Shown piece after piece: positions 34,408 through 64,000 of a DNA stretch of 64,000 nucleotides. Under the pieces are notes generated by a model, which was not told the DNA's origin, ran no database searches, and saw only the letters and a program-made list of their open reading frames with translations. Position 1 is the first letter of the stretch. Every line of letters begins with the position of its first letter. The stretch lies in assembly GCA_964373045.1 (NCBI GenBank), contig CAYJSI010000005.1:371-64370 (forward strand), read 5' to 3'. Source of the stretch: an uncultured bacterium. Lineage in GTDB: Bacteria > Omnitrophota > Omnitrophia > Omnitrophales > Aquincolibacteriaceae. The position numbers and the translations under genes were made by a program.

Positions 34408-35074
34408 AAAATTTCTCAGTCAACTGTTCGTGTTGATGCTGGCCATTGTCTGGGAGGCATTCTTTTCTCCTCTTCTTTGGGGAGTTGAGTCTTCTTTGCC
34501 TCAGCCCAAGAGTTCTTTGAGTGCCGCAAGCGAGGCAGAGGCAGAGGCAGAGGCTTCCCGGTTTCAATATGTTCTCCAGGCGGGAGACCACATCAAGGTG
34601 AAGATTTTTCCTGAAGATGAATATATACGAGGGGGCGAGACGGAGATTAGCGCGGAGGGAAATATCACATTACCCGTTATGGGAAAAGTCAAAGTGATGG
34701 GGCTGACGGCCATTGAGGCGGAAAAAATGATTGCCAAGGTTTTGGAGATGGATTACCTTGTCGATCCGGAAGTCGCGGTTGAGATTATCACGCGGCAGGC
34801 CTATCAATACTCCCTCCTCGTCTTGGGGCAAGTGAAGAAGCCCGGAAGCATCGAGTTTCCGACCGATACGAGGCGTCTTACCCTTTTGCAGGCCATCTCC
34901 CTTGCCGGGGGATTTACTGAGATTGCCAACATCAAGAAAATTCGGATTGTCCGTAAGGTCAACGAAAAGAACGAAATCATCAAAGCCAATGCGGAAGATA
35001 TTTTGAGTGGAAAAGACCCCGATATTGAAGTCGAGCCGGGAGATACGGTCAATGTGGCGGAAAGTGTTTTTTAG
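34394..35074 (+). CDS. polysaccharide export protein (Wza/Poly_export + SLBB domains)
   Basis: Poly_export motif (YVLQAGDHIKVKIF...GNITLPVMGKVKVMGLTAIEAEK) and an SLBB domain. Confidence 0.8.
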   Translation: MFPTRKFLSQLFVLMLAIVWEAFFSPLLWGVESSLPQPKSSLSAASEAEAEAEASRFQYVLQAGDHIKVKIFPEDEYIRGGETEISAEGNITLPVMGKVKVMGLTAIEAEKMIAKVLEMDYLVDPEVAVEIITRQAYQYSLLVLGQVKKPGSIEFPTDTRRLTLLQAISLAGGFTEIANIKKIRIVRKVNEKNEIIKANAEDILSGKDPDIEVEPGDTVNVAESVF

Positions 35075-35086
35075 GAGAGCGCGTTT

Positions 35087-45904: not shown

Positions 45905-47429
45905 ACGCGCGCTTAGTGTGATAGGTGTTTCTTATGTGATTATTTTTTTCTTCCTCACCCTTCCCGCGACCTCCCTCCTTGCAAAAAAAACGGAGGAAGA
46001 AAAAACCATTCAGTATCCTTCGAGCGTTGAAGACCTAAGCGACCGCAATTATTTCATAAGGCTCCGGCAGCTGATCGCCTATTCCAAAAATACTATCGAT
46101 GTTGCCATAAGCACGATGGCCGTAAGCGACATCCCGAATGATCCCGTGGCGACCCTCCTTGAGGATTTAATCCTTGCGACCAAGCGGGGAGTCCGCGTCC
46201 GATTTTTTTTAAATACTTTCAGTGGGAGCACGTTTGAGAGTTCGATTTTTCTTCGTGAGGATAAACTTCAGACCTTAAGAAGTCACAAAATCGAGATCCA
46301 TTTTGTTCATCCCCGCTATCGATACATGGATCAACTCGTCATTTTTGACCGCGAGTGGGTGCTCGATGGCGGTCTTCCCTGGACGGCCGCGGCGTTAAAT
46401 GAAGCCCTTGGATCCGCGACGTTGTCCTATTCCATGATCTTAGCGGACCAGAAAAGAGTTCGTCTCGAACTTTTGCCGCTCTGGGATGTCCAAATGGCGA
46501 AGGAGGAGCGCCGCGACGGGCGCCTCGCGGTTCCCTTCTTCCTCCTTAAGGAGATGAGACACTTTCCGGCTATGGCGAAAGTCGACGACGGGGATTCCAT
46601 GAAAATCTATCTCGCGATTCTTCGCCTTTTTTATCTCGCCCATCAGGACCCGCTTCGAGTGAATTTCGAGGAATTGGGGCATCAAATTCCGGCCGCCAGT
46701 ACGATTGATCGGGGGGCGTTGATTTTTCAGGTGGTCCAGTCTTTACGCCGTCTTGAAAAGGAGTATGAACTCATCACCTTGGTGAAAGAGGAAGCCGAGC
46801 GCTCAGAAATCCGACTCCTTTTACCTGAAAATAGGGCGCCCTTGGTCGGTGTGCCGCACGCTTTTTTTGACGAACACTACGCCAAAGAACTTTCTCCCGA
46901 GGCTATCTACACGTACCTCATTATCTTGTATCGATTGCAAATGAGCGGGGAGTCTCCGGTCTGGCTGGGTTCGGAGCGGAACATCGAGCAGGATTTTCCA
47001 CTGACGCAGGAAAACTTTCGATTCGGTATGCGAGAATTGAAGCGTCAAAATTTAATCGAAACCTTTCCCTTTCGGCTTTCCTTCGGCAAAGGCTATGAAG
47101 GAGAAGAGACGCTCGAGGCACGCTACTTAATCAATCCCATCCCGGCTCTTTCGGAGCGGCTCCGTACTTGGAATCGCATGCATGAGGAATTTGGCCGCGA
47201 TGAATTCTTAAAAGCCCGTGAACTTGCGGATCTCTTAGGCGAACCGGAAGACCCCAAGGTGGTAAGCGCCTATATTGAGTTCCTGAAAAAATATCCCGAG
47301 GAGCATGTGCGCTCATTGACGCAGCACGTGGCCGTGCTCACCCCGCGCAGCACCCCCGCCCTCTTGGATTATTTAAGCATGCTCCTCCACAACGAAACTC
47401 AGGCGAATGCCCAGCTTGCAACCACGTAA
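45897..47429 (+). CDS. secreted PLD-like-domain protein (HKD motif apparently degenerate) with C-terminal helical domain
   Basis: Signal peptide. The N-terminal half has the PLD-like fold pattern (ILATKRGVRVRFFLN ... VIFDREWVLDGG), but YMDQ stands where HxK is expected. Confidence 0.4.
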   Translation: MNKRALSVIGVSYVIIFFFLTLPATSLLAKKTEEEKTIQYPSSVEDLSDRNYFIRLRQLIAYSKNTIDVAISTMAVSDIPNDPVATLLEDLILATKRGVRVRFFLNTFSGSTFESSIFLREDKLQTLRSHKIEIHFVHPRYRYMDQLVIFDREWVLDGGLPWTAAALNEALGSATLSYSMILADQKRVRLELLPLWDVQMAKEERRDGRLAVPFFLLKEMRHFPAMAKVDDGDSMKIYLAILRLFYLAHQDPLRVNFEELGHQIPAASTIDRGALIFQVVQSLRRLEKEYELITLVKEEAERSEIRLLLPENRAPLVGVPHAFFDEHYAKELSPEAIYTYLIILYRLQMSGESPVWLGSERNIEQDFPLTQENFRFGMRELKRQNLIETFPFRLSFGKGYEGEETLEARYLINPIPALSERLRTWNRMHEEFGRDEFLKARELADLLGEPEDPKVVSAYIEFLKKYPEEHVRSLTQHVAVLTPRSTPALLDYLSMLLHNETQANAQLATT

Positions 47430-49308
47430 GGTCTCGAACAAACTTTCCGTCATCCTGACGATTTTTTTAAGCGCTCTTAGCTTTTTTTTTATCATCTGGC
47501 CCGCGGTTTCATTTTCTCAAGAGCCCGTCCGAGAGATTGCCATTAAGGCAGCCGTTTCGCCGGCCTTTAAGACGAATCCCGAGTGGGAAACGGATATCCG
47601 CGACAGGGTGCTTTTCGCAAACCGTCTCTTTGAGCCCGTTTTCGGAATTCATTTCACGGTTCGTCAAACGATTGAATGGACCCCGGAGGATGAAACCCGG
47701 CCCATGGATCTTCTGATAGAAGAACTCCGAAGTTTTATTGCCCTAAGTCCTGAGGAGGTGGTGGTAGGTTTTCACCGCATGTCTCGGCCCCTTTCGAAGG
47801 AGGTGCTCTCGGACATGGATACCGTGGGCCAAGCGCAATTTTTTCGCGGATTCGTCATGATCCGGGATCCCTTTACCGGACTCGATTCTCTTCATCGAGA
47901 AGTTGTCTTCACTCACGAGCTCGGCCATCTTTTTGGGGCGGTGCACGTCAGTGACGAGACGGCGATCATGAATGCAAAACTCCCCTTTCAACCCGCGCAG
48001 GTTTTTGATACGGACAATCAGGATATTATCCGCTCGACCCGCACCCTTGATTTCCAAAAGGGGCTGGACTCCATTCCGGGAGAATCGATTGACGGGTTGA
48101 TCCGTGTCTATGAAAAATTAATTCGCCTTCATCCTCAAAGTGATTTTTATTTGCAGCTGGGTCATTTTTATGGGAAGCGAGGTCAGAGCGCCAAGGCCAT
48201 TTCGGTTTGGGAAGAGGCGGTGCGCTACCACTACGACAACCCTTACATTCATCGCGAACTCGGGGTTCATTATTTTGAAAGCGCCCGTTATGAACAGGCC
48301 ATCCGTTCACTTGGAAGTGCCGTGGCCCACTTCATTCTTCCGAGTCAAAAGAAGCAAAGGGCCCACACCTTTAATTTGCTCGGAGTAGCGTATTACGAGA
48401 AGGGCAATTTGGAGCAGGCCATTTTTAACTGGCTGCAGGGGCTTACGGCCGATCCCGACGACCCCACGCTCCAGGCGAATCTAGCCGTAACCTATTTGCA
48501 AAAAGGCGATACCGATCGCGGCATTGCAGAACTTTTAAAATTGGCTGCCAAAAATCAGAAAGATCCGACGACCTTAAGCAATTTAGGAGCCGCTTATTTA
48601 AATGTGCGGGATTATGAAAAGGCCTTGGACTATTTGAAACGCGCCCTCGAAAATCTGGCCTTGCCGCTTGCATCAATGGAACCAGGCTCAGCCGGCGAAT
48701 CGCGGGCTCCATCTGCTTTAATGGGGGAGGTCTCAGAAGCGGAGGTTCGTCTCAATTTAGGAGTTGCGCTGCTTGAGCAGGGAAAGGCAGCCGATGCCGT
48801 AAGCGAACTTAAGCGCGCGAATGAGTTACACCCTGACAACGCCCTCGTCTACCGGCCCCTGGCCCGAGCCTACCTGACCCAGCAGGAGCATGAGCGCGCG
48901 ATTAAAGAAATTGAAAACGGCTTACGATACACAAAGGATGATCCGTATCTTTATGCCATGCTGGGGCAGGCCTATGCCGAAACGGGACGAAGGGCGGAGG
49001 CCATGCAGGCCCTGCGGGAGGGTTTGCGATACGCCAAAGATGAATTAGCCGCTAACTTTCATAAGAATATGGCGGTTTTGTATGCTCAGGATCGGGATTT
49101 TACGCGAGCCATGGCGGAATTTAAGACAGCACTGAATCAAAATTGGAAAGATCCCGAGGCGCATACGCAGCTAGGAATGGTTTATGCGACCTTAGGAAAA
49201 ATTGAGGACGCCAAGCGGTCGTTCGAAAACGCGCTTCGTATCGAGCCTCAACATGAGGCGGCCAAGCAGGCCCTCGATTCCTTGGCGAAAAACGGTTCCG
49301 GAAAATAG
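47407..49308 (+). CDS. metzincin-motif zinc protease domain fused to a TPR-repeat array
   Basis: Signal/TM; HELGHLFGAVH (HExxHxxGxxH) followed by a Met-turn-like AIM; then more than 10 TPR repeats. Confidence 0.6.
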   Translation: MPSLQPRKVSNKLSVILTIFLSALSFFFIIWPAVSFSQEPVREIAIKAAVSPAFKTNPEWETDIRDRVLFANRLFEPVFGIHFTVRQTIEWTPEDETRPMDLLIEELRSFIALSPEEVVVGFHRMSRPLSKEVLSDMDTVGQAQFFRGFVMIRDPFTGLDSLHREVVFTHELGHLFGAVHVSDETAIMNAKLPFQPAQVFDTDNQDIIRSTRTLDFQKGLDSIPGESIDGLIRVYEKLIRLHPQSDFYLQLGHFYGKRGQSAKAISVWEEAVRYHYDNPYIHRELGVHYFESARYEQAIRSLGSAVAHFILPSQKKQRAHTFNLLGVAYYEKGNLEQAIFNWLQGLTADPDDPTLQANLAVTYLQKGDTDRGIAELLKLAAKNQKDPTTLSNLGAAYLNVRDYEKALDYLKRALENLALPLASMEPGSAGESRAPSALMGEVSEAEVRLNLGVALLEQGKAADAVSELKRANELHPDNALVYRPLARAYLTQQEHERAIKEIENGLRYTKDDPYLYAMLGQAYAETGRRAEAMQALREGLRYAKDELAANFHKNMAVLYAQDRDFTRAMAEFKTALNQNWKDPEAHTQLGMVYATLGKIEDAKRSFENALRIEPQHEAAKQALDSLAKNGSGK

Positions 49309-51881: not shown

Positions 51882-52688
51882 ATGTATCTTGACTATTGGG
51901 GACTCAGCGACAAGCCGTTTAGGAACACCACGGACCCGCGGTTTCTTTGCCTCTCCGAGCAGCACGAGGAGGCGCTAACGCGCCTTAAATTTGCGGTAGA
52001 AGAATTCAAGGCCTGCGCCCTGTTGACCGGTGTCTTTGGAACCGGGAAAACCCTCCTGGTTCAGGCCCTGCTCGAAGGCCTGCGGCCCGATCAGTTTGTC
52101 TCAGCCTATATCTTCAATCCTCAGCTTGATCACGTGGAACTGCTTCGCGAAATTCTTTATGAGTTGGGAGCGCGCGATCACATCCCGGAGCATAAAAGCG
52201 ACGTCATGCACCGTCTCTCGGAGATATTAAATGACAACTATTCCGAAGGGCGCCATGCCGTGATCGTTATAGACGAGGCCCACTTAATTGAGGGCCGTCT
52301 CATTTTTGAAGAATTGCGCATGCTTCTCAATTTCCAGAAACCCGATAAGTTTTTGCTCACGCTCATTTTAGTGGGGCAGCCCGAACTTCGGGAGAAGATC
52401 GCAAACTTGAAGCCCCTTGATCAGCGCGTTTATATCCGCTTTCATTTAAAAGGCCTGAAGGCCGATGAAACAAAGGCCTACATCCTCCATCGGCTGGCGG
52501 TGGCGGGGGCGACCAAGGAAATTTTTGAGGAGGATACCTTCTCCGCGATCCATGAAGCAACGGGCGGAATCCCGCGGCGCATCAATCAGATCTGTGATTT
52601 GGCTCTGCTTGCTGGTTTTGGGATGAAGTTATCGACGATTAATCAGTCGGTTCTGAAGGAAGTGGTCATGGATTCTCAAGCGGTCTAA
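51882..52688 (+). CDS. ExeA/GspA/MshM-like AAA+ ATPase, copy 1
   Basis: Walker A GVFGTGKT and Walker B VIVIDEAHLI. About 270 aa, the size of ExeA-like secretin-assembly ATPases. Confidence 0.75.
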   Translation: MYLDYWGLSDKPFRNTTDPRFLCLSEQHEEALTRLKFAVEEFKACALLTGVFGTGKTLLVQALLEGLRPDQFVSAYIFNPQLDHVELLREILYELGARDHIPEHKSDVMHRLSEILNDNYSEGRHAVIVIDEAHLIEGRLIFEELRMLLNFQKPDKFLLTLILVGQPELREKIANLKPLDQRVYIRFHLKGLKADETKAYILHRLAVAGATKEIFEEDTFSAIHEATGGIPRRINQICDLALLAGFGMKLSTINQSVLKEVVMDSQAV

Positions 52689-52704: not shown

Positions 52705-54378
52705 ATGCGTTTTTCTGATATCGTCAAACCCAGAGACGAAGCGGAGGCAGCCTTTATCCAAAAAGAGACCCCTCCCAAGACAGCAAAACCGCCCCAACCC
52801 ATCCCAAGTCCTCCACGCAAGGCACCTGCCCAGGCAGAACCCCTGCGCGTCGATCGTGCCGCCATTGAAAAAGAACTTCGCGCCCAGCTTGAGAAAGAAT
52901 TTCAGATGAAGAGGGAGGGCATGGAAACAGAACTCAAGATGCTTTTTGAGAAAAAACGCCAGGAAGAAGTTGTGCGATTGCGTGAGCATGAAGACACCCT
53001 GCTCAGTCAGCAGGAAAAACTCAGCCGGATGTTCGAGGAGTTTCAAAAACAAAAGGAAGAAAAACAAAAGGAGGAGAAACGCAAAGAAGTTACGGAAAGC
53101 GAACGGCGGATGGAAGAGCTTCAAAAGAAAATTCTAGAACGGGACCAAACGCTTCGCAAAATGGAAGCGGAGATCAGGGGTCAAAAGGAAAAAACCGAGG
53201 AAAGAACTCCCACCGCGCCTGCGGCGCGACCAAAGGCTCCTGAGCAATACGAAACATCGGTTGAGACCGGACCTCCGCCCATTGTCGAGATCCCGCCTTT
53301 TACAAAACCCGTGGTGCGCGAGAAAGTCGATGTTTCGACGATCTTTGATCCGGTTCGTCACAAAAAGGCCAAGTCGATTGCGGAAGAATTGATAGCCCGC
53401 GGAAGTCCTGTCATTGAAAAAATTGCAAAGTCGGAGCCCTTTGAGGTCACAGGGTTGACTGCATCGCTCGCCTCACTCGTTGATCTGGCACTTCAAAGTG
53501 ATGCAGAGTTGATTCATTTGCTTTTTCAACCTTATAGCGAAACCACCGAGTTTATTTCCCACGCCCTTAATTCTGCGATCCTATCCGTCATCCTCGGGCT
53601 TGATCTTCAACTGGCCTCAGATGAGCTTCGCGAGCTGGCCCTCGCCGCTTTTCTGCATGACGTCGGCCTTGTGAATATCAGAGAGAATCTTAATTATCCA
53701 AAACAATTGACGGATGATGTCCAAAAAGAAATCTTGAGCCATCCCATTCGCGGCGCTGATCTTTTGGCAGACAAGGTGAGCGAGCCGGCCGTAACTGCCA
53801 TTCGTCAGCATCATGAAGTCTGTAACGGCAAGGGTTATCCGGAGGGGCTGACAGATAAGCAGATTCACCTTTACGCCAAGATTCTTCACGTGGCGGATGT
53901 CTTTGAGGCCCTGACCCATGAACGCCCTTACCGGAAAAAACCCTTTGAGGTGAATGAGGCGATGAAGGAAATCATCGAAAAGGGCCGCGGGGTCTATGAC
54001 CCGGCGGTGATGAAGGTCCTGATGGGCCGCATTGGTCTCTATCCTCCCATGAGCCTCGTGGAACTCAGCAATAAACAAATCGCTCGCGTCATTCGGCTGA
54101 ATCGAAAATTCCCCTTAAGCCCCGTGCTTCGCGTTGAGTTTGACGAAAACGGAAACAAGCTTGAAAGGCCCCCCGTCTTGGATTTAAGCGAATCTCGGGT
54201 CATCCACATTACGGGACCCGTGAGAGAATCCCCCTCTTTTCACGCCAAAAAGATGGCGGCGGAGACGTCTAGGACAGCTTCGGCGGCGGCCGGCAGCCCG
54301 CGATTTATCGAATTCATCCCTATGGTTCTCATTGCCATCGCTATTCTCCTCCTCCTCTATATTGTGGTAAAGATCTAA
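52705..54378 (+). CDS. HD-GYP domain c-di-GMP phosphodiesterase with long N-terminal charged coiled-coil and C-terminal TM tail
   Basis: Within a contiguous HD-GYP domain I see the FLHDVGL (HD) and NGKGYPEGL (GYP) motifs. The first ~200 aa are K/E-rich coiled coil. The last ~25 aa are hydrophobic. Confidence 0.85.
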   Translation: MRFSDIVKPRDEAEAAFIQKETPPKTAKPPQPIPSPPRKAPAQAEPLRVDRAAIEKELRAQLEKEFQMKREGMETELKMLFEKKRQEEVVRLREHEDTLLSQQEKLSRMFEEFQKQKEEKQKEEKRKEVTESERRMEELQKKILERDQTLRKMEAEIRGQKEKTEERTPTAPAARPKAPEQYETSVETGPPPIVEIPPFTKPVVREKVDVSTIFDPVRHKKAKSIAEELIARGSPVIEKIAKSEPFEVTGLTASLASLVDLALQSDAELIHLLFQPYSETTEFISHALNSAILSVILGLDLQLASDELRELALAAFLHDVGLVNIRENLNYPKQLTDDVQKEILSHPIRGADLLADKVSEPAVTAIRQHHEVCNGKGYPEGLTDKQIHLYAKILHVADVFEALTHERPYRKKPFEVNEAMKEIIEKGRGVYDPAVMKVLMGRIGLYPPMSLVELSNKQIARVIRLNRKFPLSPVLRVEFDENGNKLERPPVLDLSESRVIHITGPVRESPSFHAKKMAAETSRTASAAAGSPRFIEFIPMVLIAIAILLLLYIVVKI

Positions 54379-54560
54379 CTGACCTACTGTTTGTAGTACC
54401 CCCCGCTCACTCCGGCCTAAAGTGTCGCAACCCCTTTTTCTTCAAAGGGTTGTCTTAAGAAATCCCCTCTGATTGCCGATCTTAGATAAGCAGCTTTCAT
54501 GAGGTCCAAAGGGGATTTTTGTCCCCCGAAAGCCCTCAAAAATATAGGAATTCGGGATCC

Positions 54561-55430
54561 ATGAGCTACTATCGAGTCCTTGGACTTGAAAGGGAACCTT
54601 TTTCGACGAGCCCGGACCCTGCCTTTTTTTATGAATCGAGGCATCACAAGGCAGCCCTGGCCAATCTGATGATCGAGCTTCGTCTCAAGCGCGGCCTGAG
54701 CGTGATCCTAGGGGATGTGGGAACGGGGAAAACGACCCTGGGTCGCAAGCTGATTCAAATGCTGCGCGACCGGGAGGGTTTTATTTTTCATCTTATCCTA
54801 GATCCCTCTTATAGCTCTGAGGAATTATTTCTCGAATCACTGATTCGCACCATGGGGATCGAGATTTCTCATCCCAAACCCAGCGTCATTGATTGCAAAG
54901 AAGCCCTTGAGCGGCATCTCTTTCGAATCGGAGCCGGCGGGGACAAAACACTTGTCCTGATTATCGACGAAGCGCAGAAGATGAATCCCATGTCGCTAGA
55001 AATCCTCCGCATGCTCCTCAATTACGAAACCAATGAATACAAATTGCTGCAGCTCGTTCTGCTTTCCCAGGTCGAGCTGATGCCCAATTTGGTCCACATG
55101 CAGAACCTGCTTGACCGCATCAGCCTGAAATGTATTTTGGAGCCCTTAAACGAGGAAGAGACCCGGGAAATGATTCATTTCCGTTTGCGCCAGGCAGGCT
55201 TCGGCGGGCGTTATCATCTTTTTGTAGACGAGGCTGCCCGGGAGATCTACCGCGCCACGCGCGGATATCCGAGAAAGATTGCAATGCTTTGCCACCGCGC
55301 CCTTAAAACTTTGGTGATGAAAAACCGAGAGATTGTGAATGCTGAAATGATAGAATCCCTGGTGGGTGAGGAGGTTCGAGCAGGATGGTACAACGCAAGT
55401 CCACTCCCGAAGAGCAACTTCTTAAGCTGA
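54561..55430 (+). CDS. ExeA/GspA/MshM-like AAA+ ATPase, copy 2
   Basis: Walker A GDVGTGKT and Walker B VLIIDEAQKM. Start taken at MSYYRVLGLE. Confidence 0.75.
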   Translation: MSYYRVLGLEREPFSTSPDPAFFYESRHHKAALANLMIELRLKRGLSVILGDVGTGKTTLGRKLIQMLRDREGFIFHLILDPSYSSEELFLESLIRTMGIEISHPKPSVIDCKEALERHLFRIGAGGDKTLVLIIDEAQKMNPMSLEILRMLLNYETNEYKLLQLVLLSQVELMPNLVHMQNLLDRISLKCILEPLNEEETREMIHFRLRQAGFGGRYHLFVDEAAREIYRATRGYPRKIAMLCHRALKTLVMKNREIVNAEMIESLVGEEVRAGWYNASPLPKSNFLS

Positions 55431-56092
55431 TCGAAGGCTCAGGCGCCAAGCCGGAAGACTCAAAAATGGCTGGAGCCGCTAAGCCCAAGCGCGGATCAGT
55501 CTTTGGAAGGGCGCCGGGTTTTATTTCTTATTTCAAGACTCAATGGGGAAGACGTGAAATCGGGGCTCCCTGGAAAGGGATTTCGGTGACGACCCTTGAT
55601 ATCAAGGGAATCAACCGAATTCTCATGGGGATGATCTTTGCCACGGTGATTTATCTTCTGCTTGACCTCGTGATTTTAAAACCCAGTCACGCGAATTTTT
55701 TAGCGCAGGTGAGTACGAGCGACCCCGTCTACCCCGTCTTAGAAAAACAGCTTCAAACCTCGGAGCAGGATCTCGCGCTTTATAAGCAATCCTTTCAAAA
55801 ACGAAATCCATTTTTCCTACCCTCGGCCCAACCGGCCGATGAATCTGGTGTTCCAGGTTCACTTGCCATGTCCACCGGATCCACAAGCCGTGTGGTGCAG
55901 GCGCTTCAGGGGTTGAAGCTGGTCGGTGTTTCACTCGGAGGCCGTGACCCCATCGCCATGGTGGAAGATGAATCCACGGGGCGGACTTATTTTCTCAGGC
56001 ACGGCCAGGAGGTTCGGGGCGTCAAGGTCCAGTCGATTCGCCAAGAAAAGGTTACCGTGACCTTTGAAGGGGAAGAAGGAGAACTGCTTTAA
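55385..56092 (+). CDS. single-pass membrane protein (possible GspB/ExeB-like partner of ExeA)
   Basis: About 85 cytoplasmic residues, one TM (ILMGMIFATVIYLLLDLVIL), and a periplasmic C-terminal region. The role is inferred from its position between the ExeA-like ATPase and the secretin. Confidence 0.35.
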   Translation: MVQRKSTPEEQLLKLIEGSGAKPEDSKMAGAAKPKRGSVFGRAPGFISYFKTQWGRREIGAPWKGISVTTLDIKGINRILMGMIFATVIYLLLDLVILKPSHANFLAQVSTSDPVYPVLEKQLQTSEQDLALYKQSFQKRNPFFLPSAQPADESGVPGSLAMSTGSTSRVVQALQGLKLVGVSLGGRDPIAMVEDESTGRTYFLRHGQEVRGVKVQSIRQEKVTVTFEGEEGELL

Positions 56093-57685
56093 ATGAAAAA
56101 GCGATTCGTTTTCTTTTTATTTCTATCCTTTCTCCTGAATAGTTCGAAACAAGCCGCTTTCTTGAGGGCCCAGGACTTGGGATCCGACTCGGGGATCCAC
56201 TTGAATCAGATTCCGGCGCGTATTGCCATTGACGCAAACGCCCCTGCCCTGAAGGAGCGCGTCACACTCGACCTGCGCAACATTGAAATTGGGGAGGCGC
56301 TGAAATTTCTTGCCCTTAAGGGAAATTTAAATCTTGTCATCGGTAAAAATGTAACGGGGCGCATCTCGCTGTATCTCACGGATGTCACGGTGGGGGATGT
56401 GCTTGAAATCATGCTTTTGAGCAATAGCCTGGCCATTGCAAAGCAGGGCGAAATTTACAATGTGATGAGCGAAACGGAATACCAGGCCCTTTATGGAAAA
56501 CGTTTTTCAGATCTTCGGGAGGCTAAAATTTATAAGGTCCGATACGCCGTCCCGAGCCAAATGTTTACCGTTTTAAGCTCCGTCAAAAGTGACATCGGGA
56601 AAGTGGTCATCGATGAAGATTCTGCCACGCTTATCTTGATGGATATCCCTGAGAAAATTGAGGAGATGGACAAAATTATTTATGAAATGGAAAAAGGTCA
56701 GAGCCTTCGGATTTTTAATTTGCGCTATGCGAAGGCGGCGGATGTCGAGGCCAACTTGAAAGAACGGCTTGATGCCTTGAAGCTCGGTACGGCACGCTCA
56801 GATGAGCGGAGCAATACGATTATCGTCTCGGCCCTCTCCAAGCGGATGGAAGAAGTTGAAAAAATTGTTCAAGCCCTCGATGAGAAGACAAGAGAAGTCT
56901 TAATCGAAGCAAAAATTATCAAGGTTACTTTAAGTGACGATTACGATCAGGGCATTGACTGGAAGAGAGTGATCAGAGATGCAGGCAATGACTATCATCT
57001 AGAGAAATTTCGGCCGATACTGTCCGGTACCTTTACAAAACCTGCGGCCGTGACACAATTTGGGCGACTTCAAATCGGAAATACCAGCACGGATGCCTTG
57101 AGCGCTACGATCGATTTTCTTCAGACGGTGGGGCAGACCAAGGTGCTGGCGAGTCCCCGAATCATGGCGATTAATAATGAATCGGCTAGAATTTTAATCG
57201 GGACGCGAGAGGCATTTGTGACCACGACAACGACCACGGGACAAACGACGTCAACGACTGCCGAAAACGTAACCTTTGTCGATGTGGGCATTTCTTTGGA
57301 GGTGACGCCCACGATCAATGATGACGGTTACGTGACCATGAAGATCAAGCCTGAAATATCCAACGTAGCCCGCACGCTTACGACCCCGACTGCGAACCAG
57401 ATTCCCATTATCGATACCACGCTGGCTGAGACGAGTGTGATGGTCAAGGATGGCACGACGATTATTATTGGCGGCCTCCGGAAAAATGAAAAGGTAAAAA
57501 CGGTCACTAAAATTCCCGTGCTTGGCAGCATCCCTATTTTAGGGGCGCCCTTCCGCAGAACGGACGAGGACCTGGAGAAAATCGAGCTCGTGGTTTTTTT
57601 GACCCCGTACATTATCACGGGAGACACCACGTTTACGGACCGCCAGATTTTGGATAAACAGGTCAAACCGTTTAAGACGTATTAA
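56093..57685 (+). CDS. secretin (GspD/PilQ/MshL family outer-membrane channel)
   Basis: Signal peptide, N0/N1 secretin-N domains, and the C-terminal secretin domain with VLASPRIMAINNESARI...TKIPVLGSIPILGAPFR signature. Confidence 0.9.
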   Translation: MKKRFVFFLFLSFLLNSSKQAAFLRAQDLGSDSGIHLNQIPARIAIDANAPALKERVTLDLRNIEIGEALKFLALKGNLNLVIGKNVTGRISLYLTDVTVGDVLEIMLLSNSLAIAKQGEIYNVMSETEYQALYGKRFSDLREAKIYKVRYAVPSQMFTVLSSVKSDIGKVVIDEDSATLILMDIPEKIEEMDKIIYEMEKGQSLRIFNLRYAKAADVEANLKERLDALKLGTARSDERSNTIIVSALSKRMEEVEKIVQALDEKTREVLIEAKIIKVTLSDDYDQGIDWKRVIRDAGNDYHLEKFRPILSGTFTKPAAVTQFGRLQIGNTSTDALSATIDFLQTVGQTKVLASPRIMAINNESARILIGTREAFVTTTTTTGQTTSTTAENVTFVDVGISLEVTPTINDDGYVTMKIKPEISNVARTLTTPTANQIPIIDTTLAETSVMVKDGTTIIIGGLRKNEKVKTVTKIPVLGSIPILGAPFRRTDEDLEKIELVVFLTPYIITGDTTFTDRQILDKQVKPFKTY

Positions 57686-57735: not shown

Positions 57736-58950
57736 GTGGACAAAAGAAAGCTGGTATCGCGTTTGACAAGTTTGGATGATATTTCCGAAGGTGTCATCCC
57801 CGCATGCTTTAAGCGGGGATCCATGGATTCCGGCTTTCGCCGGAATGACAAAACTTACTCGAGTACAATGAACGGTAACCCAGCTGCTCATCAAGCACGG
57901 TTCTTCTTAAAATTATTTGCGATTCTTTTCTCTTTTATTTTTTCTCTCTTACCCTTCTCCTATGCCCTTTTTGAAAACCCTGACAAACAAAAAGTGGTCG
58001 AACTGGAAGCTCAAATGCAGAAACTGAATGAAAAAATCCGCACCGTGACCTTGGATCGCGATAATCTGCTTAAGCAGGCGAAGGCGATCCAAGTGGAAAA
58101 AGATGAACTCGGCAAAAAAATAGAGCAGATCAATAACGCGAGCTCAGGCGCCGCCCTTGAAGTTGATTCTTTAAAAAAAGAAACAGGCGTTCTCAAAGTC
58201 GAGCTTGAAAAGATGAAGGCGGCCCGTGAAAAAGATGCCAAGCTTTACCAGGAAGAGAAGGGCAACCTGGAAAAGCAATTGACCGACGAAAAGGCGAGGG
58301 CCGATTCTGTGGCCTTGATGATGAAAGAATATACTCCCGAACGCATCCAGGGCCTGATTGAAGACAGAAACCGCCTCGAGGAAGAGAGCAAGCGGATGGC
58401 GCAGCGGGTTTTTGAATATGAAAAACGCATGGAAGAAATGCGTAAACAGATGACCCCGCTTGAACTCGACCGCGAGGAACTTCACCGCGTGCAGGCGGAG
58501 AATCGCGAATGGCGGAACAAATTAGGTTATGTGCAGACCATTGAAAAGCGGCAGAAGCAGTTGATCGCAGAAAACGCAGAATACCGCAATCAGATTGAAA
58601 TTTTGAAGGCCAAGTTCAAAGACGCGGCGCCGGGCCTTGCCAAATCGAGCCGCATCTCCCAGAAAATGATGAGAGAAAACGCGGACATGCACTATAATCT
58701 CGCGAACATTTTTTTAAACAACAAGCAATATCGTGAAGCCATGCGAGAATATGAGCGCGTTTTGGAATTGCGACCCTCCGACCCCGAAACCCATTACAAC
58801 CTCGGAATCCTTTACGATGATTATTTGAAAGACCGCGACAAGGCCCTGTACCATTACCAAAAATATTTAACGATTAACCCCAAGGCCCCGGATGCCAAGC
58901 ACGTGGAGTCCTATATCTTGAATCTTGAATTAGAGCAAAAGGTCCGCTGA
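57736..58950 (+). CDS. coiled-coil protein with N-terminal TM and C-terminal TPR repeats (MshN-like?)
   Basis: Hydrophobic segment FFLKLFAILFSFIFSLLPFSYALF, a long heptad-rich coiled coil, and two or three C-terminal TPRs. The true start may be an internal ATG (57826 or 57871). Confidence 0.5.
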   Translation: MDKRKLVSRLTSLDDISEGVIPACFKRGSMDSGFRRNDKTYSSTMNGNPAAHQARFFLKLFAILFSFIFSLLPFSYALFENPDKQKVVELEAQMQKLNEKIRTVTLDRDNLLKQAKAIQVEKDELGKKIEQINNASSGAALEVDSLKKETGVLKVELEKMKAAREKDAKLYQEEKGNLEKQLTDEKARADSVALMMKEYTPERIQGLIEDRNRLEEESKRMAQRVFEYEKRMEEMRKQMTPLELDREELHRVQAENREWRNKLGYVQTIEKRQKQLIAENAEYRNQIEILKAKFKDAAPGLAKSSRISQKMMRENADMHYNLANIFLNNKQYREAMREYERVLELRPSDPETHYNLGILYDDYLKDRDKALYHYQKYLTINPKAPDAKHVESYILNLELEQKVR

Positions 58951-58952
58951 GC

Positions 58953-61900
58953 GTGATCGTGAAGAAAAGCATTCACCTTTTTTATGCGCTTTTCATTCCC
59001 GCCTTTTTTCTTCTCCCTTTTTCTGCCTTTGCCAAAATCGAGCAGTGGGACTTTCAAAACCCGATCGATTACCGTTATGAGCCGCAAAAAATAAAAGTGG
59101 GGGACGGCACAGCCCGGCTCCTGCAGCATGCCCCTTACCGGGATAACAAGGGTGAGGCCTTTGACCGGGGCACTTATCAAGGGGCGTGGGCCCCATCGGG
59201 TGCGGTGGAACCCCAGCGTTACCCCTTAGAAGAAAAGAATCCCCGCCAAGTCTCAGCGCCGCTTGCCAATCAGACCCCGGGACTGCTCGCCCTCTGGCAT
59301 TTTGATGAGCCGAGCGGCACCCATCTTCTTGATGAAATAAACCGCAACGTGGCTAAGGGCAGCGATCTTCAAGTCGTGAGCGGCCAAACAAACTTTCAAT
59401 ATGCGCGTCAGTTTGACGGGCACAAGAGCCACGTCTTTATTCCTCACTATCAAAGGTTTGAACTGAAAGGCCCTTTCACGCTCGAGGCCTGGGTCCGGCC
59501 GGGAGCGGTCCCAAGCGCCAAGCCCCAGACCATTCTTTCCCGCTGGCAGAGTGTGGGTTCCCAAAAAGTTTTTGCCTTGCAGATCAATCCCGAAGGCAAA
59601 ATCGATTTTCTTGTTTCTTCCAACGGCTCGACTGTGGTTCATCACTTAAGTGAATCAGCGGTGGCGGCGGGATTTTGGTATCACGTGGCAGCCGTCTTTA
59701 CGGGCTCGGATCTTAGAATTCATTTAAATGGCGTGCTGGACGGGGAGCCGACGCCCTTTCGCGATAAGATTTATCAAGCCGCCAATCCCATGTACCTGGG
59801 CGCTCTCGTGGACAATCGCATCGATGAACTTTTCCGCGGCTCCATGGATGAAGTGGCGATTTATGACCGCGTCCTTTCTGAAATGGAGACCTTAAGCCAC
59901 GCCGGCAATGCCGAGGCCCTGGTCGCGCTCTGGCACTTAAATGAGAGGGGCGGCGTTCTGATGGATCGTTCCGGCTTGGGTCATAATGCCATTGCCCACG
60001 GCAACCCGGAATATGAGGCCGAAGGAAAGCTGGGTTCTTCGCTTCATTTTGACGGGAAAGATCAATTCCTTGAAACGCCGGAGACTTTTCGTTTTGGACC
60101 GAACGATGAATTAACCCTCGAGGCCTGGATCAAGCCCGACAAACTTCCTTACCCCGAACGATTCGTGACCCTCCTCTCGGGTCGCGGCGAAAAAAGCGAA
60201 TATGTCCTGTCTCTTGTCGGTCCCGAGGGACGTCTCCGTGCTTTTGCCCCCACGCTTACGCCCGCTGAAGTGATAAGCCAACATAAGGTGGTGCCGGATG
60301 TTTGGCAGCATGCGGCCGTGACCTGGTCTAAAGGAACGGTTCGTCTTTATTTGAACGGATTACTCGACACCTCTGCTCCGTACCACGGCGTGCTTGAGAC
60401 GGGTAAAACAGAGGTGCGCCTCGGCATGGACTTTTTAAAAACAGCCCCCTTTAAGGGTTCGATCGATGAGGTGGCCATTTACCGGCGTGCCAAGAGTGCT
60501 TATGAAATGGCCAAAACCGCGGGGCTCTTTTCTCCCTATGCCCTTTATGAATCCTCGATCAAGGATGCGGGAGGCGTTGTCCCCTGGCAGTCGCTTTCCT
60601 GGAAAGAGTCTCTGCCCTACGGGGATGAATTTTCCACGAATGCCAAGGGGCTTGTGCATCTTTATCATTTGAATGAACCGGACGGCCAGATCTTGGGAGA
60701 CAGCCGCGTCATCTCGGCCCTGCACGCCACGGGCACCTACGAAGTCCCGGGACTTTTTTCGCGCGCCCGCTGGTTCGCCGAAAAAGGGAGCGATAAGATG
60801 ATCTCCGAAAGAGAGATCCCTTCCTTTAATACCTTTACCGTTTCCTTTTGGTTTCAGTTTGCCTCGCCCGTGGCAGGGGCCTCAGACAGGCTTTTTAGCA
60901 TCGGGGATGAAAATCCCTCGATGGTTCGCGCCGCCCCGGACGGGCGTCTTCATGTGATGGCCGGCGGTCAGCGAAAAATGACGAGCGCAAGTTCGCTTAC
61001 GGATACCCATTGGCATCACGCGGCGCTTAGTTCGGATGGCCAGCAGCTTTTTCTATATTTGGACGGTGTCTTAAATGCCGTAAGCCCCTTCACGACCGAG
61101 ACGGCCAACCAGCCCCTTGTGCTGGGGAACCTAAAATCCTCCGACACCTTTCAGGGGGCCATTGATGAATTTGCCTTCTTTAATTATGCCCTGGCGCATG
61201 AAGAGATTTGGAATCATTTCCTTGCGGGAAAACTCGATCTTCGATTTCTGGTCCGCTCCTCCCAAGAGGCGGTGGTGGCGAACGCCCCGTGGTACGGACC
61301 GCGGGGGGTTCAAAAAGGGGATCGTGAGGCCAGTGTCTTCACCATCGGCCTCTGGCACTTTAATGAAGGCAGCACGCCTGACGGTTCCCTTAAAATAGCG
61401 GATGCAAGCCGCTATGGTCATCATGCCGCTGTCTACGGAAACGTTTCGATGGTGCCGGGCGGGATCCTCGACGGCGGCTTACTTTTTAATGGATCAACGG
61501 ATTTTCTCGAGATCCCCGATTCAGAAATCATGCATCTTACGGACCAATTCACGCTTTCAGGTTGGGTCCGGCCTTTTGAAATGACGACGCAGGATTCCCG
61601 CATTTTGGATAAACATTATCACGCAGACGCACCTGTCTTTTCCTCGTTTGCTTTGGAACTCACCTCCGGAAACCGCCTGGCCCTCAAAGTAGGCCGCCCG
61701 GGCGGTTATCAGGTGATAACCACGGATCGTGATGGCGAGATTGCGGTTGACCGATGGAATCATGTGGCGGCAACTTACGACGGAAAAGAAATAAAACTCT
61801 TTATTAATGGAAAGCTCAAAAAATCGTCCTCCTTTGATGAGCGTATTCCTTACGACGGGGGCGCGCTATTCATCGGCCGAAGCGGCGGCGGAGAAGCCGC

Positions 61901-64000
61901 CTATTTCAACGGTTTGCTGGATGAAGTCGGCATCGAGAATCAGGCCTTAAGCGATGAGGAAATCCTTTCTCTCTATCAGCGGGCGGATCCGGAGAACTTT
62001 TATCGAAGAAGCGAACTTGAAAAGTTAAAAGTTGCGCCGGGCCGTTACTTCCAATATCAGGCCCATCTCTCTACGGATTATTTTGCGGCAAGGCCTCTCC
62101 TTGCTTCGGCGGAGGTCCGCGGCGCCAGTTTTCCCACGGACCTGCCTTTCATTTCAAATAATGTCAGCGTCTCTTATGCCGAGATTCAACATTTTGCGGA
62201 AAGGCCCGGCAAAAAGCATGGAGGGGCGCTCAGTTATCAGTTTTCCAATGACGGATCCAACTGGTTTTATCATAACGGCCGTCACTGGGTTTTGGCGGCA
62301 GATCCGCTTGAATCCAATACCGCCGCGCAGGCAGCCTCGCGCATTCGTGATTTTGCAAGAGAAGTCGGCATCGGAAGTTTTTATTTCAAGGCTTTTCTTC
62401 ACTCGCCCACGGGTCTCGAACCTGCCGAATTGGATGCCGTTGAGGTCGACTATCTTCCGAATAAACTGACGGTCTTAAGCCCTAATGGCGGCGAGGCCTG
62501 GCTCGTAGGTTCTCAGCAGCAAATTGTTTGGAGTTCTACGGGCGAGGTTCAACAGATCAGTCTTGAATATTCCAAAGATAATTTTGAAAAGGATTTTCAG
62601 GCCATCGCCAGGGATATTGCAAACACAGGAGCCTATGCCTGGAAAGTTCCCGACGATCTTACGCCGCAAGCCAGGATCCGCGTTTCCGATATTTCAGATC
62701 CCCGCATCTATGACAAATCGGACACCGGTTTTCGCATCATCGGTGCCTTTGAGGTCGTGAGTCCCAATTATGCGGAGCGCTGGGCGGTTGATTCCGAGCA
62801 AGAGATTTCCTGGCGCACTCTGGGCGCGATTCCGCAGGTGAAACTCGAATATTCAACCGATGAGTTTGAACAGGCCGTTTTCCCGATTGTGGACTCGGTA
62901 GAAAATGAAGGCCGATACGACTGGAAGATCCCCGATCTCATTTCTCCTTCGGCCAAGGTCCGGGTTTCGGACGTTCGCGATCCGCTCACTTATGATCAAT
63001 CAAACGACACCTTTGCCATCGTGGGCACGCTTTCGCTGGTTAGTCCCCAGGCAAAAATGCGCTGGGCGGTTGATTCCGAGCAGGAGATCCGCTGGCAGAC
63101 CCTGGGCAATGTCCCCTCGGTAAAGATTGAATATTCTCTGAGTGAAAATAATCCGAATCACATCTGGCGCGCCATTGAAGACGCCTATCTCAATCGGGGG
63201 GTCCTTCTATGGAAGGTGCCCGATGCCATTGATCCCGCCGTTCGAATCCGGATCTCTGATGTTCGTGACAAGCAGGTGGCCGTCGAGAGCCCTCCCTTTG
63301 CCGTTACAGGAGGCCTGAAGCTCCTTCTCCCTAAGGGAGGAGAGAAGTGGACGGTGGGGAGCCGCCGAAAAATTGCCTGGCAGACGCGAGGGACGGTTCC
63401 TGCGGTTTATTTGAAATACGCGCGCTTGGATTCCGTGTTTGAGACAACGGCGTCGGAAGACTCGCTTGCCAAAGTGAAATGGCAGACCTTCGGTGACGCG
63501 ATCCCCAACACCGGGAGCTTTGCGTGGGACGTTCCCGATGAAATTTCGGAACGGGTCGTGATTCGCATCGTGGATGCCAAGGATTCTCGGGTGATGGCTC
63601 AGAACCAGGCCGCCATTCAAATCATTCCCGGTTTTGTGCTGAAAGTTCCGAACGGGAATGAATCGTGGAAGGTGGGCTCTGAGGTGGACCTTCTCTGGGA
63701 AACCAAGGGAAGCATTCCCTATGTGAAGCTGGAATATTCCAAAGATCGTTTTGTCAGTGACCTTCAAACCATTATTCCGAGCGCCTCCAACATCGGGCGA
63801 TTCGCCTGGAAGGTGCCGGATGATCCCGCCAAGCAGATTCGAGTCCGCGTCTCCGACCCGAGCGTTCCCGAGGCCTCGGATCTCTCGGATGTGCCCTTTC
63901 GCGTTTTCGCCGATTTCAAAATCAAAACGCCGCACGGGGGTGAAAAATTTGAAGTGGGAAGTATCGCCCCCTTGGCTTGGAAGACGCTCGGAACGGTCCC
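58953..64000 (+). CDS. giant secreted surface protein (>1680 aa, 3' end beyond window): signal peptide, 4 LamG-like (concanavalin-A-like lectin) domains, then 8 or more tandem ~90-aa beta-sandwich repeats
   Basis: GTG 58953 gives the signal peptide VIVKKSIHLFYALFIPAFFLLPFSAFA. I translated by hand to 64000 and found no stop, so it is absent from the ORF track. There are four LamG_3-like units (ALWHFDE...LEAWVRP...DEVAIYDRVLS and variants). From about 62440 there are tandem repeats of the form P-x-GGE-x-W-x-VGS...I-x-W...V-x-LEYS...G-x-[FY]-x-W-x-VPD...RIRVSD. Confidence 0.75.
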   Translation, partial: MIVKKSIHLFYALFIPAFFLLPFSAFAKIEQWDFQNPIDYRYEPQKIKVGDGTARLLQHAPYRDNKGEAFDRGTYQGAWAPSGAVEPQRYPLEEKNPRQVSAPLANQTPGLLALWHFDEPSGTHLLDEINRNVAKGSDLQVVSGQTNFQYARQFDGHKSHVFIPHYQRFELKGPFTLEAWVRPGAVPSAKPQTILSRWQSVGSQKVFALQINPEGKIDFLVSSNGSTVVHHLSESAVAAGFWYHVAAVFTGSDLRIHLNGVLDGEPTPFRDKIYQAANPMYLGALVDNRIDELFRGSMDEVAIYDRVLSEMETLSHAGNAEALVALWHLNERGGVLMDRSGLGHNAIAHGNPEYEAEGKLGSSLHFDGKDQFLETPETFRFGPNDELTLEAWIKPDKLPYPERFVTLLSGRGEKSEYVLSLVGPEGRLRAFAPTLTPAEVISQHKVVPDVWQHAAVTWSKGTVRLYLNGLLDTSAPYHGVLETGKTEVRLGMDFLKTAPFKGSIDEVAIYRRAKSAYEMAKTAGLFSPYALYESSIKDAGGVVPWQSLSWKESLPYGDEFSTNAKGLVHLYHLNEPDGQILGDSRVISALHATGTYEVPGLFSRARWFAEKGSDKMISEREIPSFNTFTVSFWFQFASPVAGASDRLFSIGDENPSMVRAAPDGRLHVMAGGQRKMTSASSLTDTHWHHAALSSDGQQLFLYLDGVLNAVSPFTTETANQPLVLGNLKSSDTFQGAIDEFAFFNYALAHEEIWNHFLAGKLDLRFLVRSSQEAVVANAPWYGPRGVQKGDREASVFTIGLWHFNEGSTPDGSLKIADASRYGHHAAVYGNVSMVPGGILDGGLLFNGSTDFLEIPDSEIMHLTDQFTLSGWVRPFEMTTQDSRILDKHYHADAPVFSSFALELTSGNRLALKVGRPGGYQVITTDRDGEIAVDRWNHVAATYDGKEIKLFINGKLKKSSSFDERIPYDGGALFIGRSGGGEAAYFNGLLDEVGIENQALSDEEILSLYQRADPENFYRRSELEKLKVAPGRYFQYQAHLSTDYFAARPLLASAEVRGASFPTDLPFISNNVSVSYAEIQHFAERPGKKHGGALSYQFSNDGSNWFYHNGRHWVLAADPLESNTAAQAASRIRDFAREVGIGSFYFKAFLHSPTGLEPAELDAVEVDYLPNKLTVLSPNGGEAWLVGSQQQIVWSSTGEVQQISLEYSKDNFEKDFQAIARDIANTGAYAWKVPDDLTPQARIRVSDISDPRIYDKSDTGFRIIGAFEVVSPNYAERWAVDSEQEISWRTLGAIPQVKLEYSTDEFEQAVFPIVDSVENEGRYDWKIPDLISPSAKVRVSDVRDPLTYDQSNDTFAIVGTLSLVSPQAKMRWAVDSEQEIRWQTLGNVPSVKIEYSLSENNPNHIWRAIEDAYLNRGVLLWKVPDAIDPAVRIRISDVRDKQVAVESPPFAVTGGLKLLLPKGGEKWTVGSRRKIAWQTRGTVPAVYLKYARLDSVFETTASEDSLAKVKWQTFGDAIPNTGSFAWDVPDEISERVVIRIVDAKDSRVMAQNQAAIQIIPGFVLKVPNGNESWKVGSEVDLLWETKGSIPYVKLEYSKDRFVSDLQTIIPSASNIGRFAWKVPDDPAKQIRVRVSDPSVPEASDLSDVPFRVFADFKIKTPHGGEKFEVGSIAPLAWKTLGTV

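Follow-up and report, generated by a model that had tools for sequence, protein, structure and literature searches.

The window analyzed here, a 64,000-nucleotide (64-kb) stretch of DNA from an uncultured Omnitrophota bacterium, ends inside a giant gene whose product is probably (a probability of about 0.7) a Sec-exported fibre of the fibrillar-adhesin type. The gene lies on the forward strand behind a block of genes encoding two ExeA-like ATPases, a secretin and a tetratricopeptide repeat (TPR) protein. Its visible part encodes a predicted signal peptide, four LamG domains, a linker domain of 160 amino acids (aa) and the beginning of an array of immunoglobulin (Ig)-like repeats. The adhesin assignment is based on this architecture, the size of the protein, the synteny of the locus and the absence of any other known signal for export or anchoring; a surface location and an adhesive function are suggested by the domain architecture. 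The co-encoded secretin is a tentative candidate for the outer-membrane conduit or socket of the fibre, at somewhat less than even odds.

Architecture of the giant protein

Translation of the window showed a stop-free frame from GTG 58953 to position 64000, comprising 1,682 codons (5,048 nt). The chance of this many stop-free random codons is ~1e-31, computed at the GC content of the open reading frame (ORF; 0.537). Upstream, the closest in-frame stop ends at 58928, and the frame can start only at GTG 58953 or GTG 58959. The initial annotation, made from the sequence alone, had already reported a frame open to the window end and missing from the ORF list; both statements are correct, and the gene was missed because the frame runs off the window end.

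The N terminus reads MIVKKS-IHLFYALFIPAFFLLPFSAFA/KIEQWDF (the slash marks the predicted cleavage), in which a 20-residue hydrophobic core is followed by AFA/KIEQWDF. This is the sole strongly hydrophobic stretch in the 1,682 residues. All the orthologues have a small-x-small site directly ahead of a conserved [KQE]I[EQ]QWDF motif, supporting the prediction that the N terminus, which looks like a cleaved Sec signal peptide, is one, as first proposed. Cysteine is absent from the 1,682 residues of the window protein, and each complete orthologue (5,594-6,941 aa) has only six. This near absence is compatible with, but only suggestive of, translocation ahead of full folding.

Only two close relatives came out of a word-indexed protein search, and each is partial: P0001 (Candidatus Omnitrophica, 56% identity) and P0002 (50%). 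P0002 only appears to end, since a frameshift interrupts it and the PGRYFQYQ motif carries on in a different frame. A scan of the GTDB species genomes with the linker and the first two repeats as the query revealed eight Omnitrophota loci with 56-63% identity, one of which belongs to Ca. Taenariivivens baikalensis. In four of these loci the frame is open for ~4,800 aa to the end of the DNA examined and encodes 38-39 uninterrupted repeats; the first 4,800 aa of two orthologues match the Pfam families Laminin_G_3 and Kre9_KNH only. An exhaustive search of representative proteins with aa 1-1200 of the window protein yielded three complete and collinear orthologues, P0137 (6,941 aa, 55 contiguous repeats), P0138 (5,594 aa, 41 repeats) and P0139 (6,203 aa, 48 repeats), which are 47-51% identical to the window protein over aa 10-1199. 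Their genes are uninterrupted over 16.8-20.8 kb, and the encoded proteins have masses of 627-776 kDa and isoelectric points of 5.0-5.5. P0139 is the product of the gene behind the secretin in the related locus L006/L018 (0 mismatches over 4,792 aa). The sizes of the complete orthologues indicate that the window gene most likely has ~5,600-7,000 codons, and that the window shows roughly the first quarter of it. The early description of the frame as the start of a very large LamG-headed secreted protein is thus borne out by full-length relatives.

The LamG head was identified by Pfam Laminin_G_3 (PF13385, concanavalin A-like lectin/glucanase superfamily) in four stretches (E 3e-109, 362 bits vs. 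a cutoff of 27.6). The four LamG domains of the initial annotation are therefore retained, whereas the DE[VF]A[IF][YF] signature assigned to the end of each is present in only three of the four, the fourth ending in DEVGIE. LamG domain 2 has a weak sequence match to the LamG-like module of an arabinanase (PDB 5hon). At E<=0.1, the sole NCBIfam match of the giant protein is TafC (NF052521), the LamG-containing subunit of the haloarchaeal Tat-fimbriae, which is archaeal, Tat-dependent and about 370 aa long (PMC11821415). Identity with this fimbrial protein was rejected, because the score is far under the cutoff (129.7 vs. 410 bits) and the two share a LamG-type domain, with similarity at the domain level only.

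The 160-aa linker domain between the head and the stalk is strongly conserved among the orthologues and has no Pfam match at E<=1. Its AlphaFold2 (AF2) model has a predicted local distance difference test score (pLDDT) below 45 and does not resolve the fold, owing to the shallow alignment. A linker-type copy with 35% identity is located at the extreme C terminus of an alphaproteobacterial ORF in a metagenome-assembled genome (MAG) of Sulfitobacter sp. (L011 2-10417, JBLHVN010000001). This ORF encodes at least 3,472 aa with Big_5 and LamG domains, and its 5' end lies beyond the DNA examined. The placement of the copy at the C terminus of a Big_5/LamG ORF indicates that the linker is a mobile, autonomous module.

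The stalk repeats were delimited with a hidden Markov model (HMM) trained on the repeat copies of the window itself. They number five in full (aa 1171-1654), and the window end cuts a sixth after 28 aa; this gives 5.3 repeats rather than the at least eight initially counted. The proposed Kre9/KNH-like or Ig-like beta-sandwich nature of the repeats is confirmed by Pfam Kre9_KNH (PF10342), which scores 44.2 bits in the window protein (cutoff 24.6) and 342 and 242 bits in two orthologues. Consistent with this, the AF2 model of repeats 1-2 consists of all-beta sandwiches with a pLDDT above 90. Foldseek comparisons of the modelled repeats gave tandem fibronectin type III (FnIII)/Ig matches, such as the Fn3-like modules of CbhA, titin Z1Z2 and NCAM.

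The repeats had also been described as DNA-level repeats that make the gene prone to misassembly and recombination. However, Tandem Repeats Finder detected no tandem DNA repeats in the giant ORF, and the best direct-repeat families are 63-76% identical and at most 78 nt long. The longest exact direct repeat measures 24 nt in the window ORF; in three orthologous genes, over 14.4 kb, it is 18-22 nt. The claim was rejected because no significant DNA repeats exist. Pairwise comparisons of the window repeats showed amino-acid identities of 30-46%, whereas each window repeat is 40-68% identical to the repeat of the same number in each complete orthologue, the best match being the one at the same position. 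Thus, the array is old and positionally conserved rather than a recently expanded tandem. This reading agrees with the general conclusion of a 2026 preprint on the long proteins of Omnitrophota, which reports protein repeats that persist although the tandems in the nucleotide sequence have decayed (10.64898/2026.06.07.730766).

The same comparisons bear on the possibility that the giant ORF is an assembly artefact or a fragment of a pseudogene. Several MAG contigs do end within the gene, and the copy of one relative (L002) is frameshifted and contains a stretch of N. However, the window frame is unbroken over its whole length, the three complete orthologues are intact, the repeats are conserved position by position, and the exact DNA repeats of at most 24 nt are too short for collapse. 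An artefact is therefore hardly credible. In L002 itself (~9000-9165, JAKFZD010005447), a frameshift close to the boundary between LamG domain 4 and the linker breaks the orthologue into two apparent products, a "1,047-aa LamG protein" and a "547-aa Kre9 protein"; the contig also has 10 N. This split is either an assembly error or a pseudogene.

Beyond the repeats, the complete orthologues share a conserved non-repeat C-terminal module of 467-509 aa. The same module ends the independent fragments P0112 and P0120, which were found in a search with the distal repeats. Neither a Pfam family nor a significant sequence match in the PDB was found for it, and it has no transmembrane (TM) segment. Its AF2 model is of moderate confidence (mean pLDDT 64.7) and shows two beta-sandwiches (pLDDT 70-83) and, at the end, a helical bundle of ~110 aa (pLDDT 78-90); between them lie a disordered linker rich in Pro, Glu and Lys and a weak third beta domain. 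Foldseek returned only generic macroglobulin, FnIII and Ig matches for the module and no informative match for the helical tail. A metagenome scan with the module recovered three short loci only.

No recognised signal for export or anchoring was found beyond the signal peptide. RTX (GGxGxDxUx), LPXTG and PEP-CTERM motifs number zero in the three complete orthologues, which also have no TM segment after the signal peptide. Their C-terminal modules gave no Pfam match of any kind, including the C-terminal domain of the type IX secretion system (T9SS) and Por_Secre_tail. In three sets of sequences (the window protein, the initial 4,800 aa of two orthologues and the C-terminal modules), Pfam detected no autotransporter, two-partner secretion (TPS), intimin/invasin or other outer-membrane barrel family. 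S-layer homology (SLH) and other S-layer anchoring domains are likewise absent from these three sets of sequences; the middle repeats of the complete proteins were covered by the repeat HMM only. The C-terminal sorting signals suggested for checking in the initial annotation (PEP-CTERM, T9SS, LPXTG and type I secretion system (T1SS)/RTX) are thus missing from the complete orthologues, and these classes were rejected for the giant protein together with type V secretion. Operationally, a fibrillar adhesin combines an adhesive domain, repeated stalk domains and either a surface anchor or a secretion signal. The protein has the tandem stalk array, with 41-55 repeats in the orthologues, whose C termini lack a recognised surface anchor.

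A structural component of the envelope, such as an S-layer-like coat, a sheath or a tether matrix between cells, would also be very large, acidic, poor in cysteine and built of repetitive beta-sandwiches. One LamG domain weakly matches PDB 4qvs, an "S-layer domain-containing protein" (E 1e-5), and glycan-biosynthesis genes lie upstream. However, the missing SLH or other S-layer anchor domain does not fit such a component, and a single terminal lectin-type head on a long uniform stalk is the architecture of a fibrillar adhesin rather than of a lattice. The conservation of the stalk repeats by position fits a spacer of defined length. We consider a structural envelope component improbable in comparison with a ligand-specific adhesin.

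In the proposed fibrillar adhesin, the four LamG lectin-fold domains and the linker domain would form a ligand-binding head after cleavage of the signal peptide. A stalk of ~40-55 contiguous Ig-like (Kre9_KNH) domains would hold this head ~145-250 nm from the cell. The span was estimated by multiplying the repeat number by the ~3.5-4.5 nm that each Ig-like domain occupies in tandem Ig/FnIII rods. The C-terminal module would most likely be the cell-proximal element for attachment or assembly; that the head points away from the cell is a guess.

Secretin block and proposed export route

Within a conserved block that resembles an operon, the giant gene is the last of the large cistrons; the order is ExeA-like ATPase, HD-GYP protein, second ExeA-like ATPase, bitopic protein, secretin, TPR protein and giant protein (Table 1). 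The full order is present in the related loci L001/L003, L004, L005, L006/L018, L008, L009, L019 and L020. Two further loci give partial views, since the L002 contig starts inside the HD gene and L007 shows just the TPR gene and, behind it, the giant gene. The last five genes of the window block are spaced by -46, 0, 50 and 2 nt, and no excess of terminator-like sites was found in the block. The stop of the TPR gene, which itself follows the secretin gene, is 2 nt ahead of the giant gene start, in line with the initial placement of the giant gene directly behind an orphan secretin module. Among the related loci, identity is 72-80% for the secretin and 47-63% for the giant protein. PIG-L, WbqC and GT4 genes are inserted in the window and in L001 and are absent from L019 and L020. 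This variation of the flanking genes around a constant block argues that the core block, not the wider neighbourhood, is conserved.

Against the NCBIfam models, the scores of the block proteins are under the family cutoffs. The secretin is under the cutoffs of all the models (243 vs. 351 bits for GspD (TIGR02517), 201 vs. 250 bits for MshL, and likewise for PilQ). No peptidoglycan-binding domain was detected by Pfam in either ATPase. The bitopic protein is a possible analogue of GspC or GspB, and its L020 orthologue has a faint T2SSC match. The TPR protein has weak NCBIfam matches to Tgl/PilW, well under the cutoffs. The HD-GYP-type protein is, from its motifs, likely a cyclic di-GMP (c-di-GMP) phosphodiesterase or sensor. 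Exact-protein look-ups of the window secretin and of two versions of the TPR protein gave no match. A 17.5-kb metagenomic contig (L017, Logan ERR3478686_54182) carries an ExeA-like ATPase identical to that of the window and the same upstream gene order and ends within the secretin gene; the identical ATPase indicates the same or a very close organism in the sample of run ERR3478686.

The term orphan is a fair description of the secretin module, because no motor of a type II secretion system (T2SS) or type IV pilus (T4P) was found in the window. A prepilin motif and the Walker A box of GspE/PilB/MshE-type ATPases (GPTGSGKT) are absent from every frame of the 64 kb. Pfam detected no such motor among the window genes from 3 to 59 kb, which include genes for arginine biosynthesis and diaminopimelate-decarboxylase-type, UbiD-family, MqnC-like radical-SAM and LpxD/SurA-like proteins. 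Genes for a GspE/PilB ATPase, GspF or a prepilin are also absent within 10 kb of the three complete orthologous loci.

These results bear directly on whether the giant protein could be a tip or accessory adhesin, like PilY1 or like MshQ of the MSHA pilus, carried on a type IV filament through the adjacent secretin. The Vibrio msh locus encodes MshQ, which is a large LamG protein, and its MshM/MshL/MshN set is reminiscent of the ExeA-like ATPase, secretin and TPR protein of the block; on the MshL model, the secretin of the block reaches 201 bits. However, this score is under the cutoff, the NCBIfam search of the giant protein gave the sub-threshold TafC match alone and no MshQ model, neither the prepilin motif nor GPTGSGKT occurs in the window, and the flanks of the three complete loci contain no such genes. 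A stalk of 600-780 kDa is also unlike any known pilus tip protein. A pilus-tip role is thus very improbable.

The conserved operon structure, together with the absence of any other visible route, favours the secretin as the conduit or socket of the fibre. The dedicated secretin would then most likely be the outer-membrane route or tether of the fibre, and display of the fibre might be under c-di-GMP control. The latter is suggested by the HD-GYP gene in the block and a GGDEF gene nearby, by analogy with LapA-type adhesins. The GGDEF gene encodes a HAMP-GGDEF diguanylate cyclase (29539-30912, reverse strand) and is the second c-di-GMP gene near the HD-GYP protein of the block.

Alternatively, the giant protein could be a secreted fibre for which the secretin/ExeA/TPR block is not the route. 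The block would then serve a T4P, a T2SS or a polysaccharide pathway encoded elsewhere, the genes would adjoin through a shared envelope regulon, and the fibre would reach the surface by another path, for example one aided by the AsmA-like protein encoded downstream. This is supported by the lack of GspE, GspF and pilin genes around the secretin and by nearby exopolysaccharide (EPS) export genes. The ATPases resemble the PEP-CTERM/EPS-associated model TIGR03015 most closely, and in five loci the giant gene is followed by a small AsmA-N-like one. However, the gene order is invariant and the spacing tight in ten independent loci (L002 and L007 being partial) while the flanks vary, and the TPR gene ends 2 nt ahead of the giant gene. 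On balance this explanation appears unlikely, although it retains an appreciable share of the probability.

The AsmA-N-like gene (225-240 aa, N-terminally anchored) is found after the giant gene in five of the six loci in which the downstream region is visible, with a gap of -4 to 22 nt in four of them. Its product matches the N-terminal part of AsmA only, and a copy belonging to the window locus would be expected past position 64000. In the window, an 834-aa protein (3039-5543, forward strand) with an AsmA C-terminal match just under the threshold (29.2 vs. 29.8 bits) is possibly a full-length AsmA-like protein. Small signal-peptide proteins (199-257 aa) that end in poly-Lys and G[WL]F(W), such as ...KKKKKGWF and ...KKKRWGLF, are also encoded just after the giant gene. 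We know of no sorting signal that corresponds to this ending. A 190-aa product in L018 (26605-27177) is a sequence-related member without the poly-Lys motif, and the L016 copy shares the motif only. A second, paralogous LamG-headed giant gene lies a few kilobases further downstream in L018 (29274-35794) and L020 (29871-34427). The second giants are 23-29% identical to the window protein and have the same signal peptide followed by a QxWDF start. The 3,714-aa product in L018 extends past the end of the locus, and the repeat HMM did not detect the window-type repeat in it.

Several points weigh against the Sec-exported fibre with a secretin route. With no GspE/PilB, GspF or prepilin genes in the window or in the 10 kb beside the complete orthologues, the secretin is left without a visible motor. 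To our knowledge, no secretin exports or holds a protein of at least 600 kDa. No NCBIfam equivalog cutoff is reached by the secretin or the ATPases. The locus is in an envelope/exopolysaccharide region (Wzy_C, Poly_export, Wzc-like and GT4), which, together with the likeness of the ATPases to the XrtA/PEP-CTERM type, means that the module could serve another envelope process. In addition, the length, repeat count and C terminus of the window gene are extrapolated from orthologues with 47-56% identity, the model of the C-terminal module is only moderate and has no informative structural match, and the adhesive function, ligand and surface location are deduced from the types of domain.

A bolder extension of the secretin-routed fibre is that the whole block, from the two ATPases to the small poly-Lys proteins, forms a self-contained surface-fibre system without a pilus motor, in which the secretin serves as the conduit and may also be the permanent socket of a fibre of ~0.2 µm. 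The helical-bundle module at the C terminus would remain lodged in the secretin pore or beneath it, and c-di-GMP would govern display or release, possibly through the conserved upstream metzincin-TPR protein. We regard this scheme as rather unlikely in its entirety. A TPR gene of 583-606 aa occupies the same place upstream of the secretin block in L019 and L020, and a role of the metzincin-TPR protein as a processing or release protease of the fibre is speculation.

Two further observations concern the region upstream of the block. An EPS-type set on the forward strand (27359-36913) encodes a Wzy_C O-antigen ligase-like protein, a Poly_export/SLBB Wza-like protein, a Wzc-like P-loop protein and a large TPR protein. 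Just before it, an 822-aa protein (24894-27362, forward strand) has a marginal match to DUF4215 (Cys-rich repeat) and is otherwise unannotated.

Table 1. Positions of the features in the window, and of the small genes following the giant gene in related loci (given as locus and position; reverse strand marked by a minus sign)
Feature	Position	Strand	Basis
Secreted TPR protein, 633 aa, metzincin motif HELGHLFGAVH at aa 170	47407..49308	+	Pfam TPR families; sub-threshold Reprolysin_5/Peptidase_M10
ExeA/GspA/MshM-like AAA_22 ATPase, copy a	51882..52688	+	Pfam AAA_22; TIGR03015 227 bits vs. cutoff 324
HD-GYP-type protein	52705..54378	+	Pfam HD_5, HD; HD, HHE and GYP motifs at aa 318, 369 and 377
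ExeA/GspA/MshM-like AAA_22 ATPase, copy b; true start maybe ATG 54561	54519..55430	+	Pfam AAA_22; TIGR03015 180 bits vs. 324
Bitopic inner-membrane protein, 235 aa, one TM segment at aa 75	55385..56092	+	Weak GspC matches, E 2e-4 and 8e-4; T2SSB E 0.12
Secretin, 530 aa; signal peptide, 2x Secretin_N, Secretin domain	56093..57685	+	Pfam Secretin 161 bits
Membrane-anchored coiled-coil and C-terminal TPR protein, start codon uncertain	57736..58950	+	Pfam TPR; TM-like segment
Giant LamG/Kre9-repeat gene, 5' portion (1,682 codons)	58953..64000	+	Stop-free frame; leaves window end; collinear with complete orthologues
Predicted Sec signal peptide, 27 aa, cleavage AFA/K	58953..59033	+	Hydrophobicity; cleavage position kept in orthologues
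LamG/concanavalin-A-like domain 1, approx. aa 112-310	59286..59882	+	Pfam Laminin_G_3; start motif LWHFDE, end motif DEVAIY
LamG domain 2, approx. aa 325-525	59925..60527	+	Pfam Laminin_G_3; weak PDB sequence match 5hon
LamG domain 3, approx. aa 566-760	60648..61232	+	Pfam Laminin_G_3; LYHLNE ... DEFAFF
LamG domain 4, approx. aa 797-1004	61341..61964	+	Best Pfam stretch aa 846-1004; end motif DEVGIE
160-aa linker domain between head and stalk, aa 1011-1170	61983..62462	+	Conserved among orthologues; Asp-box-like SNDGSNWF motif
Five complete Kre9_KNH/Ig-like repeats (94, 94, 95, 106 and 95 aa)	62463..63914	+	Repeat HMM, Pfam, AF2, Foldseek
Repeat 6, first 28 aa, truncated by window end	63915..64000	+	Repeat HMM
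AsmA-N-like genes	L012 10875-11591; L013 2858-3550; L018 27211-27888; L019 30849-31541; L020 26801-27523		
Poly-Lys + G[WL]F proteins	L013 3626-4294; L016 4918-5544; L018 25871-26533(-), 27917-28627(-); L019 31600-32373(-); L020 27555-28154, 28270-28977		

Comparison with known systems and implications

The fibrillar adhesins of Gram-negative bacteria include the T1SS RTX adhesins LapA, SiiE and MpIBP. Like these, the giant protein is predicted to measure hundreds of kilodaltons, is acidic and poor in cysteine, and has a c-di-GMP-linked gene nearby. It also shares their layout of one terminal, putatively ligand-binding region, tens of Ig-like stalk domains and a separate cell-proximal module. 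However, it has an N-terminal Sec signal peptide instead of a C-terminal T1SS signal, its orthologues lack RTX motifs, and a secretin block takes the place of the T1SS genes. The stalk is of the Kre9_KNH type, and the C-terminal module belongs to no known family. The giant protein is classed as a new family within the known giant bacterial adhesins and not as a new kind of system.

GspA and GspB (ExeA and ExeB) assist the assembly of a secretin, and MshL, MshM and MshN form the corresponding MSHA set. The block resembles both GspA/B-GspD and MshL/M/N in encoding an AAA_22 ExeA-type ATPase, a bitopic partner, a secretin and a TPR protein. It differs from them in that the scores are under the family cutoffs, the ATPase is duplicated with the HD-GYP gene between the copies, no pseudopilus or pilus genes are adjacent, and the ATPases have no peptidoglycan-binding domain in Pfam.

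The published giant proteins of Omnitrophota range from 10,000 to more than 100,000 aa, mostly with many TM helices and SecA-DEAD or dockerin content (10.1101/2023.11.21.568195). Long proteins of this phylum commonly adjoin T2SS/T4P-like genes (10.1101/2023.11.21.568195; 10.64898/2026.06.07.730766). The published giants are preceded by systems of more than ten genes that include gspE, gspF, rcpC and a rotamase gene, and are then followed by pilZ genes (10.1101/2023.11.21.568195). A "tandem-repeat scaffold" class, proteins rich in PF13385 and a topology class with a signal peptide only have also been described (10.1101/2023.11.21.568195; 10.64898/2026.06.07.730766). The words LamG, Kre9 and secretin are absent from both of these papers. 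The giants of West-Roberts et al. 2023 exceed ~30,000 aa and have numerous TM regions and a divergent SecA-DEAD domain (10.1101/2023.11.21.568195). The protein described here resembles the published giants in coming from the same phylum and in being a very long secreted protein beside secretion-system genes. However, its orthologues have 5.6-6.9 kaa and no TM segment and therefore fall outside the giants of West-Roberts et al. The surrounding loci differ as well, since the block lacks gspE, gspF, rcpC, rotamase and pilin genes and an AsmA-N-like gene, not pilZ, lies downstream. A literature search found no paper on a secretin together with an adhesin in Omnitrophota and none on Taenariivivens.

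Omnitrophota are ultra-small, largely uncultured bacteria that are believed to attach to other cells or to prey on them. For such cells the locus is a compact, well-conserved candidate contact apparatus, in which a lectin-headed fibre as long as the cell itself would be encoded together with its own secretin and a c-di-GMP-linked gene. With 5.6-6.9 kaa, the fibre is far more tractable for domain expression, glycan arrays and cryo-electron tomography than the giants of 30-150 kaa. Should the secretin not be the conduit, the protein would still represent a clean new fibrillar-adhesin family with an unclassified C-terminal attachment module. If the secretin does act as the conduit or socket of the fibre, the known repertoire of secretin functions would be widened, and a motor-less fibre system, if true, would be a use of a secretin that has not been described for any T2SS, type III secretion, T4P or phage system.

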